From a virus (Duplodnaviria > Heunggongvirae > Uroviricota > Caudoviricetes), in IMG/VR virus record IMGVR_UViG_2531839665_000024: a stretch of DNA of 48,253 nucleotides; one strand, written 5' to 3'. Shown piece by piece: positions 39,444 to 48,253 of the stretch (the first letter of the stretch is position 1; each line of letters starts with the position of its first letter). The position numbers were made by a program, and so were the translations under genes. The notes beneath the pieces are model-generated. The model was not told the origin of the DNA. It did not search any database and saw only the letters and a list, made by a program, of their open reading frames with translations.

Positions 39444-42400
39444 ATGGGTAAAGGCAGCAGTAAGGGGCATACTCCGCGCGAAGCGAAGGACAACCTGAAG
39501 TCCACGCAGTTGCTGAGTGTGATCGATGCCATCAGCGAAGGGCCGATTGAAGGTCCGGTGGATGGATTAAAAAGCGTGCTGCTGAACAGTACGCCAGTGC
39601 TGGACAGTGAGGGGAATACCAACATCTCCGGCGTCACGGTGGTGTTCCGGGCCGGTGAGCAGGAGCAGACACCGCCGGAGGGATTTGAATCCTCCGGCTC
39701 CGAGACGGTGCTGGGTACGGAAGTGAAATACGACACGCCGATCACCTGGACCATCACGTCGGCAAACATTGACCGACTGCGTGTTACCTTCGGCGTGCAG
39801 GCACTGGTGGAAACCACCTCAAAGGGGGACAGGAATCCGTCGGAAGTCCGCCTGCTGGTTCAGATACAGCGTAATGGTGGCTGGGTGACGGAAAAAGACA
39901 TCACCATTAAGGGCAAAACCACCTCGCAGTATCTGGCCTCGGTGGTGGTGGGTAACCTGCCGCCGCGCCCGTTCAGTATACGGATGCGCAGGATGACGCC
40001 GGACAGCACCACAGACCAGCTGCAGAACAAAACGCTCTGGTCGTCATACACCGAAATCATCGATGTGAAACAGTGCTACCCGAACACGGCACTGGTCGGT
40101 GTGCAGGTGGACTCGGAGCAGTTCGGCAGCCAGCAGGTGAGCCGTAATTATCATCTGCGCGGGCGTATTCTGCAGGTGCCGTCGAACTATAACCCGCAGA
40201 CGCGGCAATACAGCGGTATCTGGGACGGAACGTTTAAACCGGCATACAGCAACAACATGGCCTGGTGTCTGTGGGATATGCTGACCCATCCGCGCTACGG
40301 CATGGGGAAACGTCTTGGTGCGGCGGATGTGGATAAATGGGCGCTGTATGTCATCGGCCAGAATTGCGACCAGTCGGTGCCGGACGGCTTTGGCGGCACG
40401 GAGCCGCGCATCACCTGTAATGCCTGGCTGACCACACAGCGCAAGGCGTGGGATGTGCTCAGTGATTTCTGCTCGGCGATGCGCTGTATGCCGATATGGA
40501 ACGGGCAGACGCTGACGTTCGTGCAGGACCGACCATCAGATAAGGTGTGGACCTATAACCGCAGTAATGTGGTGATGCCGGATGATGGCGCGCCGTTCCG
40601 CTACAGCTTCAGCGCCCTGAAGGACCGCCATAATGCCGTTGAGGTGAACTGGATTGACCCGGATAACGGCTGGGAGACGGCGACAGAGCTTGTGGAGGAC
40701 ACGCAGGCCATTGCCCGTTACGGTCGTAACGTCACGAAGATGGATGCCTTTGGCTGTACCAGTCGGGGGCAGGCGCACCGCGCCGGGCTGTGGCTGATTA
40801 AAACGGAACTGCTGGAAACGCAGACCGTGGACTTCAGCGTGGGTGCGGAAGGGCTTCGCCATGTACCGGGGGATGTCATTGAAATCTGCGATGATGACTA
40901 TGCGGGTATCAGCACCGGCGGGCGCGTGCTGGCGGTGAACAGCCAGACCCGGACGCTGACGCTCGACCGTGAAATCACGCTGCCATCCTCCGGTACCACG
41001 CTGATAAGCCTGGTTGACGGAAGTGGCAATCCGGTCAGCGTGGAGGTCCAGTCCGTCACCGACGGCGTGAAGGTAAAAGTGAGCCGTGTTCCTGACGGCG
41101 TTGCCGGATACAGCGTGTGGGGGCTGAAGCTGCCGACGCTGCGCCAGCGACTGTTCCGCTGCGTGAGTATCCGTGAGAACGACGACGGCACGTATGCCAT
41201 CACCGCCGTGCAGCATGTGCCGGAAAAAGAGGCCATCGTGGATAACGGGGCGCACTTTGACGGCGACCAGAGCGGCACGGTGAATGGTGTCACGCCGCCA
41301 GCGGTGCAGCACCTGACTGCCGAAGTCACCGCAGACAGCGGGGAATATCAGGTGCTGGCGCGCTGGGACACACCGAAGGTGGTGAAGGGCGTGAGCTTCC
41401 TGCTCCGTCTGACCGTAACAGCGGACGACGGCAGTGAGCGGCTGGTCAGCACGGCCCGGACGACGGAAACCACATACCGCTTCACACAACTGGCGTTGGG
41501 GAACTACAGGCTGACAGTCCGGGCGGTAAATGCGTGGGGACAGCAGGGCGATCCGGCATCGGTATCGTTCCGGATTGCCGCACCGGCAGCGCCGTCTCGG
41601 ATTGAGCTGACACCGGGCTATTTTCAGATAACCGCCACGCCGCATCTTGCGGTTTATGACCCGACGGTACAGTTTGAGTTCTGGTTCTCGGAAAAACGGA
41701 TTGCGGATATCAGGCAGGTTGAAACCAGCGCGCGTTATCTTGGTACGGCACTGTACTGGATAGCCGCCAGTATCAATATCAAACCGGGCCATGATTATTA
41801 TTTTTACGTTCGCAGTGTGAACACCGTTGGCAAATCGGCATTCGTGGAGGCTGTCGGTCAGCCGAGCGATGATGCGGAAGGTTATCTGAATTTTTATAAA
41901 GGGTTGATCAATAAAACGCATCTCGGCAAGGAGCTACTGGAAAACTTTGAGCTGACGGAAGATAACGCCAGCAAACTGGAGCAGTTTTCGAAAGAGTGGA
42001 AGGACGCCAACGATAAGTGGAATGCCATGTGGGGCGTCAAAATTGAGCAGACCAAAGACGGCAAACATTATGTCGCGGGTATTGGCCTCAGCATGGAGGA
42101 CACGGAGGAAGGCAAACTGAGCCAGTTCCTGGTTGCCGCTAACCGTATCGCGTTTATTGATCCGTCTAATGGCAACACAAGACCAATGTTTGTTGGTCAG
42201 GGCGATCAGATATTCATGAATGAAGTGTTCCTGAAACGCCTGACGGCCCCCACCATTACCAGCGGCGGTAATCCTCCGGCATTTTCCCTGACATCAGACG
42301 GGAGACTGACGGCGAAAAATGCGGATATCAGTGGCAGTGTGAATGCGAACTCAGGAACGCTCAACAATGTCACGATTAACCAGAACTGTACGATTAAGGG

Positions 42401-42857
42401 CATGCTGGAGGCGACCCAGGTCAGAGGAGATTTCGTTAAAGCTGTATCAAAAGCCTTCCCGAAAAAAGTCGGTACGTGGGGTAACACGGAAACACCAAAC
42501 GGTACGGTTACAGTCACCATCAGCGATGATCATAACTTTGACCGCCAGATTATTATTCCGCCCATTATTTTTAACGGTATAGCGTATGACGATCCGGGGA
42601 GCGGAAATAACCCAGGAGGCACGCGATACACGGGTTATGGTTTTGAAGTTCGCAAAAACGGCGTATTAATCGCATCCAGAGAAACTAAAGGGGCCATTCC
42701 CGGTAGTTACAGTGCAGTTATTGATATGCCGAGTGGCAGGGGAAGCGTCACTCTGGAGTTTAAGATTTTCCAGAAAGGCAATCAGGGGGCAGGCAATATC
42801 ACCGACTGTACGGTGATTGTGACCAAAAAAGCCGCTTCCGGCATCAGTATTCGTTGA
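39444..42857 (+). CDS. J: Central tail fibre / host specificity protein J
   Basis: 1137-aa ORF matching lambda J over its length as far as I can judge. Confidence 0.95.
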
Positions 42858-42927: not shown

Positions 42928-43527
42928 ATGCGTAAAGTTTGTGCAGCAATTTTGTCCGCAGCCATTTGTCTGGCCGTATCCGGTGCGCCTGCATGGGCGT
43001 CTGAACATCAGTCCACGCTGAGCGCGGGGTATCTTCATGCCTCGACGAACGTCCCCGGCAGCGATGATCTGAACGGGATTAACGTGAAATACCGTTATGA
43101 GTTTACGGACACACTGGGGCTGGTGACGTCATTCAGCTATGCAGGAGACAAGAATCGCCAGCTGACCCGTTACAGCGATACCCGCTGGCATGAAGATTCC
43201 GTTCGTAACCGCTGGTTCAGCGTAATGGCGGGGCCGTCTGTGCGCGTGAATGAATGGTTCAGCGCGTATGCGATGGCGGGTGTAGCTTACAGCCGTGTGT
43301 CGACTTTCTCCGGGGATTATCTTCGCGTAACTGACAACAAGGGGAAAAAGCACGATGTGCTGACCGGAAGTGATGACGGTCGCCACAGCAACACGTCTCT
43401 GGCGTGGGGGGCTGGCGTGCAGTTTAACCCGACCGAATCCGTGGCCATTGATATTGCTTATGAAGGCTCCGGCAGTGGTGACTGGCGCACTGACGGTTTC
43501 ATCGTGGGTGTCGGTTATAAATTCTGA
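42928..43527 (+). CDS. lom: Lom outer membrane protein (Ail/Lom family)
   Basis: 199-aa ORF with signal peptide and C-terminal GYKF beta-barrel signature; matches lambda Lom. Confidence 0.9.
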   Translation: MRKVCAAILSAAICLAVSGAPAWASEHQSTLSAGYLHASTNVPGSDDLNGINVKYRYEFTDTLGLVTSFSYAGDKNRQLTRYSDTRWHEDSVRNRWFSVMAGPSVRVNEWFSAYAMAGVAYSRVSTFSGDYLRVTDNKGKKHDVLTGSDDGRHSNTSLAWGAGVQFNPTESVAIDIAYEGSGSGDWRTDGFIVGVGYKF

Positions 43528-43554
43528 TTAGCCAGGTAACACAGTGTTATGACA

Positions 43555-43582
43555 GCCCGCCGGTTCAGGCGGGCTTTTTTGT
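43555..43582 (+). terminator. Rho-independent terminator downstream of lom
   Basis: Hairpin GCCCGCC-GGTTCA-GGCGGGC followed by TTTTTT. Confidence 0.65.
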
Positions 43583-43591
43583 GGGGTGAAT

Positions 43592-46500
43592 ATGGCAGTA
43601 AAGATTTCAGGTGTACTGAAAGACGGCACAGGAAAACCGGTACAGAACTGCACAATCCAGCTGAAAGCAAAACGTAACAGCACCACGGTGGTGGTGAACA
43701 CGCTGGCCTCAGAAAATCCGGATGAAGCCGGGCGTTACAGCATGGACGTTGAGTACGGGCAGTACAGCGTTATTCTGTTGGTGGAGGGATTCCCGCCGTC
43801 ACATGCCGGGACCATCACCGTGTATGAAGATTCCCGACCCGGTACGCTGAATGATTTTCTCGGTGCCATGACGGAGGATGATGCCCGTCCTGAGGCACTG
43901 CGCCGTTTTGAACTGATGGTGGAAGAGGTGGCGCGTAACGCGTCCGCGGTGGCACAGAACACGGCAGCCGCGAAGAAGTCAGCCAGCGATGCCAGCACAT
44001 CAGCCCGTGAGGCGGCAACCCATGCGACTGATGCTGCAGGCTCAGCACGCGCAGCCAGCACGTCAGCCGGACAGGCCGCGTCGTCGGCTCAGTCAGCATC
44101 TTCCAGCGCAGGAACGGCATCAACAAAGGCCAGTGAAGCATCGAAAAGTGCTGCTGCTGCAGAGTCCTCAAAAAGCGCGGCAGCTACCAGTGCCGGTGCG
44201 GCGAAAACGTCAGAAACGAATGCGGCAGCGTCACAACAATCAGCAGCCACTTCTGCATCCGCCGCGACCACGAAGGCGTCAGAAGCAGCCACCTCAGCCA
44301 GGGATGCGTCGGCTTCAAAAGAGGCAGCGAAATCATCAGAAACGAACGCATCATCAAGCGCCAGTAGTGCCGCTTCCTCGGCAACGGCGGCAGGCAATTC
44401 CGCGAAGGCGGCAAAGACGTCTGAGACAAACGCCAGGTCTTCTGAAACGGCAGCGGGACAGAGCGCCTCGGCTGCGGCAGGCTCAAAAACAGCGGCTGCG
44501 TCGTCTGCCAGTGCCGCGTCAACAAGTGCCGGGCAGGCCTCAGCCAGTGCCACCGCCGCCGGAAAATCGGCAGAAAGCGCCGCATCGTCTGCTTCAACAG
44601 CCACAACGAAGGCTGGCGAAGCCACTGAACAGGCCAGCGCAGCAGCAAGGTCTGCTTCCGCAGCGAAGACATCCGAGACGAACGCGAAAGCGTCGGAAAC
44701 CAGCGCAGAATCCTCAAAAACGGCTGCCGCATCGTCCGCCAGTTCGGCGGCGTCATCGGCATCATCGGCGTCTGCTTCAAAAGATGAGGCGACCAGACAA
44801 GCGTCCGCAGCGAAGGGCAGCGCCACGACGGCATCCACGAAGGCGACAGAGGCAGCTGGCAGTGCGACGGCGGCAGCACAGAGCAAAAGTACGGCGGAAT
44901 CCGCGGCAACGCGCGCCGAGACAGCGGCAAAACGGGCAGAGGATATTGCATCCGCCGTGGCGCTTGAGGATGCAAGTACGACGAAAAAGGGGATAGTACA
45001 GCTCAGCAGTGCGACCAACAGTACGTCTGAAACGCTGGCGGCAACGCCAAAGGCAGTAAAATCAGCCTATGACAATGCAGAGAAACGTCTGCAGAAAGAC
45101 CAGAACGGCGCTGATATACCCGATAAGGGACGCTTCCTGAACAACATTAACGCGGTCAGTAAAACAGACTTTGCTGATAAGCGTGGTATGCGTTATGTGC
45201 GGGTTAACGCTCCTGCAGGTGCAACATCTGGAAAATATTACCCTGTTGTTGTTATGCGTTCTGCTGGCTCAGTAAGCGAACTGGCATCAAGGGTCATTAT
45301 CACCACGGCAACGCGAACCGCAGGCGATCCGATGAATAACTGCGAGTTTAACGGATTTGTTATGCCTGGTGGCTGGACTGACAGGGGGCGTTATGCTTAT
45401 GGAATGTTCTGGCAATATCAAAACAATGAACGAGCCATCCACTCAATAATGATGAGTAATAAGGGCGATGATTTGCGCTCTGTGTTCTATGTTGATGGCG
45501 CTGCTTTCCCTGTTTTTGCGTTTATCGAAGATGGCCTGTCAATATCCGCACCTGGTGCTGATCTCGTTGTTAATGATACGACCTATAAGTTTGGGGCAAC
45601 AAATCCGGCGACTGAATGTATCGCGGCGGACGTTATCCTTGATTTTAAGAGTGGGCGTGGTTTTTATGAGTCTCATTCGTTAATCGTTAACGATAACTTG
45701 TCGTGCAAAAAACTTTTTGCCACAGACGAAATTGTAGCGCGTGGTGGTAATCAGATTCGAATGATAGGTGGGGAGTATGGGGCATTATGGCGTAATGATG
45801 GCGCTAAAACTTACCTGCTGCTTACCAATCAAGGTGATGTTTATGGTGGCTGGAATACATTAAGACCGTTTGCTATTGATAACGCAACCGGCGAACTGGT
45901 TATTGGAACCAAACTGTCCGCAAGTCTGAACGGTAATGCATTAACAGCAACAAAGCTGCAAACGCCAAGACGGGTTTCTGGTGTTGAGTTTGATGGTTCC
46001 AAAGATATTACTTTAACCGCCGCGCATGTGGCTGCTTTTGCCAGAAGGGCAACGGATACATATGCCGATGCGGATGGTGGCGTTCCCTGGAATGCCGAAT
46101 CAGGCGCTTATAATGTCACCCGCTCTGGCGACAGCTATATTCTGGTTAACTTCTATACCGGAGTCGGAAGTTGCCGGACCTTGCAGATGAAGGCGCATTA
46201 CAGAAATGGTGGTCTGTTCTACCGTTCTTCAAGAGACGGTTATGGTTTTGAGGATGACTGGGCAGAAGTTTATACCTCGAAAAATCTTCCACCAGAAAGC
46301 TACCCAGTCGGCGCACCAATCCCGTGGCCATCAGATACCGTTCCGTCTGGTTATGCCCTGATGCAGGGGCAGACTTTTGACAAATCTGCTTACCCGAAAC
46401 TTGCAGCCGCTTATCCGTCAGGCGTGATCCCTGATATGCGTGGCTGGACGATTAAGGGCAAACCTGCCAGTGGTCGGGCCGTATTGTCTCAGGAACAGGA

Positions 46501-46990
46501 CGGCATTAAATCGCATACCCACAGCGCCAGCGCATCCAGTACAGATTTGGGGACGAAAACCACATCGTCGTTTGATTACGGCACTAAATCCACGAATAAC
46601 ACTGGTGCGCATACCCATAGTTTAAGTGGCAGCACGAATGCAGCTGGTAATCACAGCCATAGAGATGGCCGTCGATTTAACCCCAGTGTTTTTAAAGATA
46701 CTTATCAATATGGTTATACAAGCTCAGGTCAAAATACCTGGGGTGTACAAGGCTCAGTAGGTATGTCTACGGGGTGGTTAGCGAATACCAGTACAGATGG
46801 TAATCATAGCCATTCACTGTCCGGCACAGCAGCATCTGCAGGTGCACACGCGCATACTGTCGGTATTGGTGCTCATACGCACTCCGTTGCGATTGGTTCA
46901 CATGGACACACCATCACCGTTAACGCTGCTGGTAACGCGGAAAACACCGTCAAAAACATCGCATTTAACTATATTGTGAGGCTTGCATAA
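43592..46990 (+). CDS. stf: Side tail fibre protein (Rac StfR-like) with long Ala/Ser/Thr-rich repeat region and C-terminal HxH motifs
   Basis: 1132-aa ORF from ATG ([27 protein letters not shown]...); low-complexity repeats; C-terminal SHTHS, AHTHS, NHSHS, AHAHT, SHGHT motifs. Confidence 0.9.
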
Positions 46991-47565
46991 TGGCATTCAG
47001 AATGAGTGAACAACCACGGACCATAAAAATTTATAATCTGCTGGCCGGAACTAATGAATTTATTGGTGAAGGTGACGCATATATTCCGCCTCATACAGGT
47101 CTGCCAGCAAACAGTACCGATATTGCACCACCAGATATTCCTGCTGGCTTTGTGGCTGTTTTCAACAGTGATGAGGCATCGTGGCATCTCGTTGAAGATC
47201 ATCGGGGTAAAACGGTTTATGACGTGGCTTCCGGCGACGCGTTATTTATTTCTGAACTCGGTCCGTTACCGAAAAATGTTACCTGGTTATCGCCGGAAGG
47301 GGAGTTTCAGAAGTGGAACGGCACAGCCTGGGTGAAGGATACGGAAGCAGAAAAACTGTTCCGGATCCGGGAGGCGGAAGAAACAAAAAACAACCTGATG
47401 CAGGTAGCCAGTGAGCATATTGCGCCGCTTCAGGATGCTGCAGATCTGGAAATTGCAACGGAGGAAGAAATCTCGTTGCTGGAAGCATGGAAAAAGTATC
47501 GGGTATTGCTGAACCGTGTTGATACGTCAACTGCACAGGATATTGAATGGCCAGCACTGCCGTAG
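46990..47565 (+). CDS. tfa: Tail fibre assembly protein
   Basis: 191-aa ORF immediately after stf (TAATG overlap); matches Tfa family. Confidence 0.9.
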
Positions 47566-47662: not shown

Positions 47663-48253
47663 TTATATGTCAGGTGTCTGAAGTTTTGCTTTGGCTCTTA
47701 AAATGGTTTGCCGCGAGGTTTTGAATTCCCGGGCAATGGCACTTATACTTACACCTGACTTAATTCGTTCGAATACCGCCTGTTTCTGTTCTTCATTTAA
47801 CACAGGTGGTCGACCAAAACGTTTCCCTGCGCCGCGGGCTCTTACTATCCCGGAATGAGTGCGTTCAAGTAAAAGGTCTCGTTCAAATTCAGCGACTGCT
47901 GAAATTACTTGCATCATCATTTTTCCTGTTGGACTGGTCAGGTCAATGCCCCCCAATGCTAAGCAATGCACTCTGATACCTGTTTCGGTCAGTTGTTCCA
48001 CTGTTTTCCTGATATCCATTGCATTACAACCAAGGCGATCCAGTTTTGTCACAATCAATTGATCACCACATTTCAGGCGAGCAAGCAACCGGTTAAAACC
48101 AGGACGCTCACTGGTTGCTGCTGAGCCGCTAATGTGTTCTTCGATTATTTGCTGAGGTTTGATTTTAAAACCTGCACTTTCGATTTCCCAGCGTTGATTT
48201 TCGGTGGTCTGATCCAGCGTTGATATCCGACAGTAAGCAAAAATTTGAGACAT
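47663..48253 (-). CDS. pin: Pin/Gin/Hin-family serine DNA invertase; start codon is the last 3 nt of the window
   Basis: 196-aa ORF with resolvase catalytic N-terminus (CRISTLDQ, catalytic Ser) and C-terminal HTH; matches PinR/PinQ from memory. Confidence 0.9.

Follow-up and report, generated by a model that had tools for sequence, protein, structure and literature searches.

Organisation of a Rac-type side tail fibre gene with a heptad-periodic coiled-coil shaft and a T4 gp37-like tip

The side tail fibre (Stf) of Ur-lambda is a trimer, present as four fibres per virion, that speeds adsorption; its N-terminal domain makes a dodecameric collar on the tail, and the map of the protein comprises an N-domain (residues 1–91), a proximal coiled coil (residues 102–393) and an OmpC-binding distal part that resembles gp37 (PMC12617516). 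A 2005 list of long coiled-coil proteins includes the side tail fibre (PMC1322226), and recombination between lambda stf and the Rac stfR gene has been carried out in the laboratory (PMC3945230). In the needle of T4 gp37, seven iron atoms are held on His motifs, H929/H931 being among the sites; needles of this type coordinate metal (Fe in T4) octahedrally through six His residues from three chains (PMC6957217). Earlier publications already cover the gene analysed here, its coiled-coil shaft, the HxH needle that binds iron and the mosaic kinship with T4 gp37 and lambda Stf.

The stf gene and its closest relatives

The window analysed is a stretch of 48,253 nucleotides of viral DNA, in which the stfR-type side tail fibre gene (stf) occupies positions 43592–46990 of the plus strand. 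The open reading frame starts with the ATG at 43592, stops with the TAA at 46988–46990 and encodes a product of 1132 amino acids. A GTG codon at 43586 is in the same frame and was used as the annotated start in phage PhiR34_1, whereas the annotation of K-12 stfR starts at the ATG. A terminator-like hairpin followed by a T-run (43554–43585, plus strand) lies between lom and stf, with a GGGGTGA Shine-Dalgarno sequence after it. Upstream of the gene there are a J-like ORF (39444–42857) and an Ail/Lom gene (42928–43527). Downstream, tfa (46990–47565, plus strand; Caudo_TAP, Pfam PF02413, E=6.8e-43) encodes the tail fibre assembly chaperone, so that the fibre gene has a dedicated chaperone gene beside it, as is typical of gp37-type fibres. 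The ATG of tfa shares one base with the stf stop codon (TAATG). This J-lom-stf-tfa order is that of the lambdoid late operon and is the same in PhiR34_1 and in K-12 Rac. Genes annotated as stfR in many E. coli genomes share 99.9% of their nucleotides with stf, as does the fibre gene of the isolated phage PhiR34_1; for that of Kati, another isolated phage, the DNA identity was 99.0%. No family for Stf or Tfa was returned by the NCBIfam search.

The N-terminal tail-attachment domain (residues 1–105, 43592–43906, plus strand) was recognised by Pfam PF08400, whose full profile covers residues 1–134 (E=1.6e-71). Residues 1–94 align end to end with the N-domain of lambda Stf (PDB 9E7M/9MGH, E=2e-51). 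By analogy with Ur-lambda, residues 1–105 would dock four trimers as a collar onto the tail tip. The PF08400 domain and the J-lom-stf-tfa context bear out the preliminary description of the gene as a side tail fibre, and we estimate a probability of about 90% that its product is the side tail fibre of a lambdoid prophage of the Rac type, built as a modular homotrimeric rod.

Alignments to the two closest described proteins were also performed. StfR of K-12 Rac (b1372, NP_415890.2) is 95% identical over the full length; it shares the lom, tfa and pin neighbours, the 51-heptad coil, the modules similar to Mu S and T4 gp34, the collar and the seven HxH motifs. The cassette between HxH 3 and HxH 4 has 48 residues here and 36 in K-12 StfR (proteins of 1132 and 1120 amino acids, respectively), and this window contains an intact lom as well as the surrounding phage genes, whereas the K-12 lomR is split by IS5. 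The K-12 orthologue is located in a defective prophage. The Ur-lambda Stf (774 amino acids; PDB 9E7M/9MGH) is 80% identical over 352 amino acids, comprising the N-domain and the first ~28 heptads, and 71% identical over 248 amino acids in the collar and needle. It has the same 25-residue junction and a Tfa chaperone gene downstream, but lacks the ~410-residue middle part similar to Mu S and gp34 and carries a hinge and a distal segment of its own. It also differs in having eight HxH motifs (with an extra IGAHQHPVV unit), an extra SFDYGTKTTG unit and a different tip cassette.

The Ala/Ser/Thr-rich tract

Residues 106–462 (43907–44977, plus strand) form 51 uninterrupted heptads with the consensus A-[ASK]-[TS]-S-A-[ST]-[ASE]. 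Ala, Ser and Thr together account for 70–80% of residues 151–450, versus 16–30% in most other 50-residue blocks. The DNA of the tract is GC-rich (0.59–0.64 versus 0.44–0.53 downstream) with a strong A>T skew. For lags up to 56, the autocorrelation of residue identity reached z=8–12 at each multiple of 7; the Ala indicator peaked at a period of 3.50. Heptad position 1 is Ala in 47 of 50 cases, position 4 is Ser in 37/50 and position 5 is Ala in 35/50. Repeated 5- to 7-mers were far above those of shuffled sequences (20 repeated 7-mers observed versus 1.1 ± 1.3, maximum 7), including KTSETNA at residues 205, 275 and 359 and ASSASSA at residues 380 and 387. In the AF2 monomer model residues 92–520 were almost wholly helical (mean pLDDT 69); the helix turned back at two low-confidence turns to give a three-helix hairpin, which makes the model unusable for geometry. 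The same kind of fold-back artefact has been reported for lambda Stf, the homologous segment of which was modelled as a coiled coil (PMC12617516), and for this reason we only infer the straight-rod geometry of the shaft.

The 51 heptads and the helical AF2 model place behind the N-domain the long proximal coiled coil that characterises the lambda Stf/Rac StfR family. This indicates that the Ala/Ser/Thr-rich tract is the proximal coiled coil known from Ur-lambda Stf, with a trimeric state predicted by homology. The earlier claim of an Ala/Ser/Thr-rich region at residues ~110–470 was thus right as regards composition and repeated peptides, but the term "low-complexity repeats" does not suit a strictly heptad-periodic coiled coil. 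Residues 106–462 would form one continuous, parallel and presumably trimeric coil, in which both core positions are Ala, with Ser adjacent. Such a shaft may act as a thin spacer of ~53 nm (a length that assumes the canonical rise of 0.148 nm per residue), carrying the distal modules beyond the central J fibre.

Alternatively, the tract could be read as a disordered low-complexity linker or contingency repeat in which replication slippage often alters the length, slippage being a mechanism that the preliminary description had proposed together with recombination. Its Ala, Ser and Thr content would suit this reading. TRF, run on positions 43000–47500 (4.5 kb, covering the 3.4-kb gene), found one DNA tandem repeat within it, a 9-nt unit in 2.4 copies at 44748–44769 (plus strand) that encodes ...SSASSAS...; two related protein clusters (P0052 and P0082) lack three residues exactly at this site, and single variants with three or four additional residues exist. 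No other head-to-tail repeat of high identity was detected in that interval apart from this 22-nt array. The remaining repetitiveness of the DNA is weak, consisting of dispersed families of 23–37 nt with 62–85% identity, mostly at spacings that are multiples of 21 nt, and identical peptides are encoded with synonymous differences in 6–7 of 9 codons. The periodicity lies in the protein, where the 7-residue period is strict and unbroken across 357 residues, the tract is predicted to be helical and the homologous segment of lambda has been modelled as a coiled coil. The frequent copy-number differences among close relatives that are expected of a contingency tract were not found either: the coil showed no net indel in any of the 48 E. 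coli genomes sampled, the most divergent of which had 89% nucleotide identity; its length was equal in 113 of 117 close protein clusters and in 77 of the 78 loci bearing the 12-residue end motif of lambda (lambda itself left out). Coil-bearing places number ~8,900 in 5,426 E. coli genomes. The TRF scan and the repeat search, with a single 22-nt site, rule out DNA tandem repeats and slippage as the main mechanism. The claim of slippage is therefore unsupported, since most synonymous sites vary between the DNA copies and the length is nearly constant, and the slippage or disordered-linker reading, already largely refuted, is very improbable.

The coiled-coil DNA also contains three long alternative-frame ORFs (43989–45018): one of 335 aa on the plus strand (43989–44996) and two on the minus strand, of 309 aa (44089–45018) and 263 aa (44184–44975). 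Could any of them, especially the last one, be a real overlapping gene? The antisense frame at 44184–44975 has one stop, versus 8.0 ± 2.2 in synonymous-codon shuffles (P=0.0005), a depletion that survives shuffling within heptad positions and is present in lambda and in divergent tracts too. It is, however, entirely due to avoidance of NCT|A codon junctions, which is general in the genes of this phage (22 observed versus 53.4 expected in the pooled control genes, ratio 0.41); with this general avoidance ~3 antisense stops are expected, against the one seen. The tracts of E. ruysiae and Escherichia sp. carry four stops in the antisense frame, and the other two open frames (335 aa, plus; 309 aa, minus) are fully accounted for by codon content. 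Substitutions cluster at third codon positions of the stf frame (32/41, 50/69 and 52/62), indicating purifying selection on stf. An overlapping antisense gene was consequently rejected, the shuffle signal being matched by the NCT|A avoidance of the control genes and the divergent tracts carrying stops; that any of these frames is a gene is extremely improbable. Synonymous shuffles, control genes and divergent tracts all agree with the earlier judgement that these ORFs are spurious products of the composition of the tract; they are compositional artefacts and should not enter annotation as genes. The same purifying selection bears on whether stf as a whole is in decay, like its counterpart in the defective Rac prophage of K-12, and yields no functional fibre. 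The Rac prophage of K-12 is cryptic, its stfR is annotated as "putative", and stf is frameshifted in laboratory strains of lambda. In this window, however, the ORF of 1132 codons is intact and flanked by intact J, lom and tfa genes, and its near-identity to the fibre genes of PhiR34_1 and Kati is with phages that have been isolated. Decay is therefore very improbable, and a side tail fibre with a coiled-coil shaft is the preferred reading.

Distal modules, needle and tip cassette

The coil is followed by the conserved junction and a segment similar to Mu gpS (residues 463–521, 44978–45154, plus strand; PDB 5YVQ/8JU3); residues 91–172 of the Mu tail fibre protein S match Stf residues 441–521, and the junction motif is kept in lambda and in all Rac-type fibres. 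A T4 gp34-like trimerization domain was identified at residues 663–777 (45578–45922, plus strand; Pfam PF21446, E=3.4e-27), with matches of the gp34 structures PDB 4UXE/5NXF/5NXH to residues 706–777. A domain similar to the C-terminal part of Mu gpS/S' occupies residues 813–907 (46028–46312, plus strand) and matches residues 322–415 of PDB 8JU3 (domain E=2.7e-20). The homology to Mu S (residues 441–521 and 813–907) and to gp34 (residues 706–777) is local, confined to separate modules of a protein whose overall architecture is different. From these matches, the order after the coil is the conserved KGIV junction, the modules similar to Mu S and T4 gp34, and then a collar of the gp12/gp37 type. 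Folding of the C-terminal part is probably chaperoned by Tfa, encoded in translational coupling downstream; T4 uses gp38 and gp57A instead (PMC6957217).

Residues 901–1132 (46292–46987, plus strand) are homologous to the tip of T4 gp37 (PDB 2XGF, E=4.9e-85) and comprise the collar, with Pfam PF07484 at residues 907–954, and the needle. Kinship with gp37 is limited to these last 232 residues. Exactly seven HxH motifs (SHTHS, AHTHS, NHSHR, NHSHS, AHAHT, AHTHS and SHGHT) are clustered at residues 975–1106 (46514–46909, plus strand), and they contain 14 of the 20 His residues of the protein. In the 2XGF alignment all seven are colinear with the HxH motifs of the gp37 needle, and H1021/H1023 correspond, by arithmetic from this alignment, to gp37 H929/H931. 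The preliminary description had listed these same motifs, counting five or more, and had likened them to metal-coordinating trimeric fibre tips; the alignment supports both points. The HxH cluster would then be part of a metal-coordinating trimeric tip, in which, by analogy with T4, the seven motifs of three chains would bind seven metal ions (iron in gp37) that may stiffen the interdigitated beta-structure of the terminal needle.

Nearly all the differences between this protein and K-12 StfR fall in the variable tip cassette located between HxH 3 and HxH 4 (residues 1024–1071, 46661–46804, plus strand), which also differs from those of lambda, 2H10 and T4. The tip subdomain is ~14 residues longer than that of gp37 and unrelated to it in sequence. 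Related fibres carry at least nine cassettes, set between HxH motifs that are conserved; the cassettes assort independently of the shaft modules, and that of this protein is present on fibres of 942–1176 amino acids. This variability is consistent with the proposal that the tip determines the receptor: the 48-residue loop cassette at the end of the needle would presumably contact the cell-surface receptor. No receptor for this tip type or for the PhiR/mEp460 phages was found in the literature search.

An invertase gene lies beside the fibre genes. It encodes a Pin-type serine recombinase (47663–48253, minus strand; PF00239 and HTH_7) and is separated from tfa by only ~100 bp. A fibre segment inverted by this adjacent Pin, like the Mu G, P1 C or e14 P segments, was considered and rejected for this window: no AAACCNNGGTTT-like crossover core of the gix/hix type was present near stf, tfa or pin, in a window that stops at the pin start codon, and a second tfa or stf C-terminus was absent. 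The inverted repeats within stf measure 14–16 nt, and two-copy matches that short often arise by chance.

Shaft length and in-register recombination

The length of the coil, near-identical within the Rac type, differs across the wider family. The lambda coil is 105 amino acids shorter, which is exactly 15 heptads, and that of one cluster is 28 amino acids (four heptads) shorter. Measured between the N-domain anchor and the KGIV motif, the spacing was 7n+3 in 23 of 28 representative clusters and 7n+2 in the other five. Classes of 19, 20, 22, 35, 36, 44 and 51 heptads were distinguished among these 28 clusters on the basis of the anchor-to-motif distances, heuristic heptad counts being too low where aromatic residues lie within the coil. 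Rare variants of -3, +3 and +4 residues indicate that the register is strongly but not absolutely kept. A recombinant junction in register, after AAKTSETN at about residue 280, was observed in L099, L108, H113–H117 and an S74-peptidase fibre. Because the length in the wider family differs in whole heptads, together with the exchange of modules, recombination rather than slippage is indicated; of the two mechanisms initially proposed for length variation, only in-register recombination, in the wider family, was upheld.

New combinations are produced by homologous or homeologous recombination in conserved segments, namely the coil heptads, the KGIV junction, the collar and the HxH boxes; the length of the coil therefore shifts only by whole heptads and the tips assort independently of the shaft modules. 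Tentatively, the coil may be a length-quantised spacer under stabilising selection, with register-preserving recombination as the general route for swapping distal modules and with reach as a selectable property, although we consider this possibility rather doubtful at present. No statement on whole-heptad quantisation of shaft length was found in the literature searched.

For the analysis of these genes, the Ala/Ser/Thr-rich tract should be neither masked nor treated as a slippage-prone repeat. The conserved heptads, the KGIV junction and the HxH boxes offer natural places at which chimeric fibres can be spliced in register, and lambda Stf has already been engineered in this way. If the spacer reading is true, the 51-heptad form would be fixed in thousands of E. 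coli prophages although their nucleotide sequences diverge by as much as 11%, and the reach of the fibre, ~20–53 nm in steps of ~1 nm, would be a selectable host-range trait.

The stf gene and its surroundings

The largest ORF of the region is located on the plus strand and extends from 43586 (GTG) or 43592 (ATG) to a TAA codon at 46988–46990. Counted from the ATG, the encoded side tail fibre protein (Stf) has 1132 residues, and its N-terminal sequence (12 residues) has the same start as lambda Stf. This ATG is preceded by a terminator-like hairpin with a T-run (43554–43585) and then by the Shine-Dalgarno sequence GGGGTGA; the hairpin, placed between lom and stf directly 5' of the ribosome-binding site, is strong (8-bp stem, 7 GC pairs). 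Upstream of stf are a J-like ORF (1137 aa, 39444–42857) and an Ail/Lom gene (42928–43527), and downstream is the Caudo_TAP tail-fibre assembly gene tfa (46990–47565); the stf stop and the tfa ATG have one base in common (TAATG). On the minus strand, opposite to stf, a gene for a Pin-type serine invertase (47663–48253) abuts tfa, like pinR in Rac. The K-12 Rac prophage and phage PhiR34_1 share the order J-lom-stf-tfa-pin. Neither a gix/hix-like crossover core nor an alternative fibre segment was found in the window, which stops exactly at the invertase start codon.

The fibre observed in the preliminary description was confirmed by Pfam, PDB and PHROGs matches, the last being to tail-fibre families only. 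Residues 1–134 match PF08400 (E=1.6e-71), residues 1–94 the lambda Stf N-domain solved in 9E7M/9MGH, residues 441–521 and 813–907 the Mu tail fibre protein S (5YVQ/8JU3), residues 663–777 the T4 gp34 trimerization domain (PF21446; 4UXE, 5NXF), residues 907–954 the phage tail collar domain (PF07484) and residues 901–1132 the crystallised T4 gp37 receptor-binding tip (2XGF, E=4.9e-85).

Each of the 30 E. coli records listed as best matches contains the 3399-nt gene in full length at 99.9% identity, mostly annotated as stfR. At least 80% of it was detected in 1231 of 5426 complete E. coli genomes, and some part in 5170. In DNA, identity is 99.9% with the side tail fibre gene of PhiR34_1 and 99.0% with that of phage Kati, and the K-12 StfR protein is 95% identical to Stf, with nearly all the differences in one block (residues 1021–1072). 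The window's stf is thus one allele of a gene that is very common and has been annotated before. Partial Stf proteins (P0010, P0020, P0023, P0029 and P0036) bear the NCBI name 'short-chain fatty acid transporter', an evident misannotation, possibly driven by their Ala/Ser-rich composition.

The C-terminal needle and its tip

A metal-binding tip with five or more His-x-His (HxH) motifs had been proposed. The cluster is present and its count is exactly seven (H975/977, 1007/1009, 1021/1023, 1072/1074, 1086/1088, 1095/1097 and 1104/1106), comprising 14 of the 20 histidines of the protein. In the HMMER alignment to 2XGF each of them lies opposite an HxH of gp37, in agreement with the proposal. By arithmetic from this alignment, H1021/H1023 corresponds to gp37 H929/H931, the motif that binds one of that needle's seven iron atoms (PMC6957217), and we infer that the gp37-like needle of Stf would also bind metal.

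The segment between the third and fourth motifs is the equivalent of the gp37 'tip' subdomain (gp37 residues 932–959). In the window this cassette has 48 residues, with a sequence unrelated to its counterparts in T4, lambda or K-12 StfR. At the tip position, 62 related fibres that have this needle carry at least nine types of cassette, 32–53 residues long; the window's type is the commonest and is present on fibres of 942–1176 aa. The tip is thus hypervariable and, as suggested previously, presumably determines the receptor; a literature search for the receptor of this tip type found no paper. Seven HxH motifs occur in 59 of the 62 fibres, two fibres have fewer and lambda has eight. Compared with window residues 997–1000 and 1090–1100, the lambda needle (locus L003) contains one extra 10-residue unit (SFDYGTKTTG) and one extra 9-residue unit (IGAHQHPVV), the latter providing the eighth HxH, which places unit duplication in the needle and not in the coil.

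A heptad coiled coil in the Ala/Ser/Thr-rich tract

The Ala/Ser/Thr-rich composition described for residues of about 110–470 and the peptides quoted from it were borne out, with repeated k-mers far above shuffles, but the tract is not low-complexity repeat. Identity autocorrelation reached z=7.9–11.9 at lags 7, 14 and so on to 56, other lags being near or below zero, and the Ala indicator peaked at a period of 3.50 (power 9.4, versus a shuffle 95th percentile of 1.7). Set out in rows of seven, the register is unbroken from F106 to S462 (51 heptads, DNA 43907–44977). Of the 50 heptads that start at residue 113, 47 have Ala at position 1 (the remaining three have Val), 37 have Ser at position 4 and 35 have Ala at position 5. 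Alanines at positions 1 and 5 follow the 4+3 spacing typical of the two core positions in a coiled coil. The canonical coiled-coil rise is ~0.148 nm per residue, from which the 357-residue coil would form a rod of ~53 nm. An AF2 single-chain model of residues 92–520 (mean pLDDT 69) was helical throughout except for two turns of low confidence at which the chain folds back on itself, the same artefact reported by the Ur-lambda authors for AlphaFold3 on full-length Stf (PMC12617516). Residues 102–393 of lambda Stf are described as the proximal coiled coil of a trimeric fibre (PMC12617516), and as early as 2005 the side tail fibre appeared in a list of long bacterial coiled-coil proteins (PMC1322226).

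In the DNA itself, TRF detected a sole array of 22 nt (9 nt x 2.4 copies, 44748–44769). Dispersed repeat families of 23–37 nt show 62–85% identity, spaced mostly by multiples of 21 nt, and AAKTSETNA, a peptide present in three copies, is encoded with pairwise differences in 6–7 of nine codons, all of them synonymous. The repeat is kept in the protein and is degenerate in the DNA.

Three long alternative-frame ORFs lie wholly inside the coil DNA, and the earlier view that they are spurious was upheld. Most substitutions between alleles affect the third codon position of stf (32/41, 50/69 and 52/62), and codon content alone accounts for the openness of two of the frames. The third, antisense, contains one stop versus 8.0 ± 2.2 in synonymous shuffles (P=0.0005), a depletion that remains when shuffling within heptad positions. 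It is explained by a general avoidance of NCT|A codon junctions in the genes of this phage (22 observed versus 53.4 expected under synonymous shuffling in 16 control segments located between 8306 and 47562, from 14 ORFs with stf divided into two). A codon that ends in CT is seldom followed by one beginning with A, which keeps some antisense frames open; in divergent tracts the third frame is interrupted by stops. The three ORFs are artefacts. A 461-aa antisense ORF inside J (40536–41921, minus strand), overlapping a GC-rich stretch (0.59–0.65, 41000–41600), is probably another compositional artefact.

Length variation of the shaft

Length variation by slippage or recombination had been predicted for the tract. 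Of the most similar protein clusters, 117 had both of two 12-residue motifs, and in 113 of these the motifs lie 359 residues apart, as they do in 77 of 88 fetched loci carrying both; of the 11 remaining loci, ten belong to lambda itself or to contigs of contaminating lambda DNA. E. coli genomes were also sampled at even intervals: the 48 matches to a 1131-nt coil query, covered fully (46) or minus its first 12 bases (2), all had equal record and query spans and hence no net indel, also where nucleotide identity was as low as 89%. The exceptions found were a loss of 28 residues, or four heptads (P0114), of three residues at a 14-residue site where the 9-nt mini-repeat is located (P0052 and P0082), and gains of three (P0057) and four residues (L072).

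Across the wider family, length varies in heptads. The lambda coil is shorter by exactly 105 residues (15 heptads), and other Escherichia fibres have about 22–35 heptads. In 28 representative clusters (50% identity level, both anchors present), the distance from the anchor to the KG motif, the conserved junction after the coil, was 7n+3 in 23 and 7n+2 in five, with classes of 19, 20, 22, 35, 36, 44 and 51 heptads; the window allele belongs to the longest class observed.

Recombinant fibres (L099, L108, H113–H117 and one S74-peptidase-type fibre) change partner after a conserved AAKTSETN heptad, near residue 280, with the register kept. The fibres of L099, L108 and L129 (E. coli CX12, NZ_CP073719.1, 3213–6815) have the window's N-domain and first ~25 heptads, followed by a different coil in register; the L129 gene is annotated with a terminal S74-family endopeptidase domain and has a truncated tfa and pinQ downstream. 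Red-dependent recombination of lambda stf with Rac stfR has been demonstrated experimentally (PMC3945230). The tract is thus a substrate for recombination in which length changes are rare and come in whole heptads; it is not a slippage-prone repeat.

The frameshifted stf of lambda (401-aa orf, N-domain 92% identical to the window's) was found in L013–L020, L023 and other loci, in assemblies that bear the names Pseudomonas, Shewanella, Leeuwenhoekiella, Neobacillus, Oceanobacillus, Kitasatospora and others. The contigs reach ~48.5 kb, and several have a coverage close to 1x; these look like cases of public genomes contaminated by lambda DNA.

All the essentials of this fibre were known beforehand from lambda Stf, Rac StfR and T4 gp37; the sole small addition concerns the shaft, whose conservation and variation in whole heptads are quantified here.
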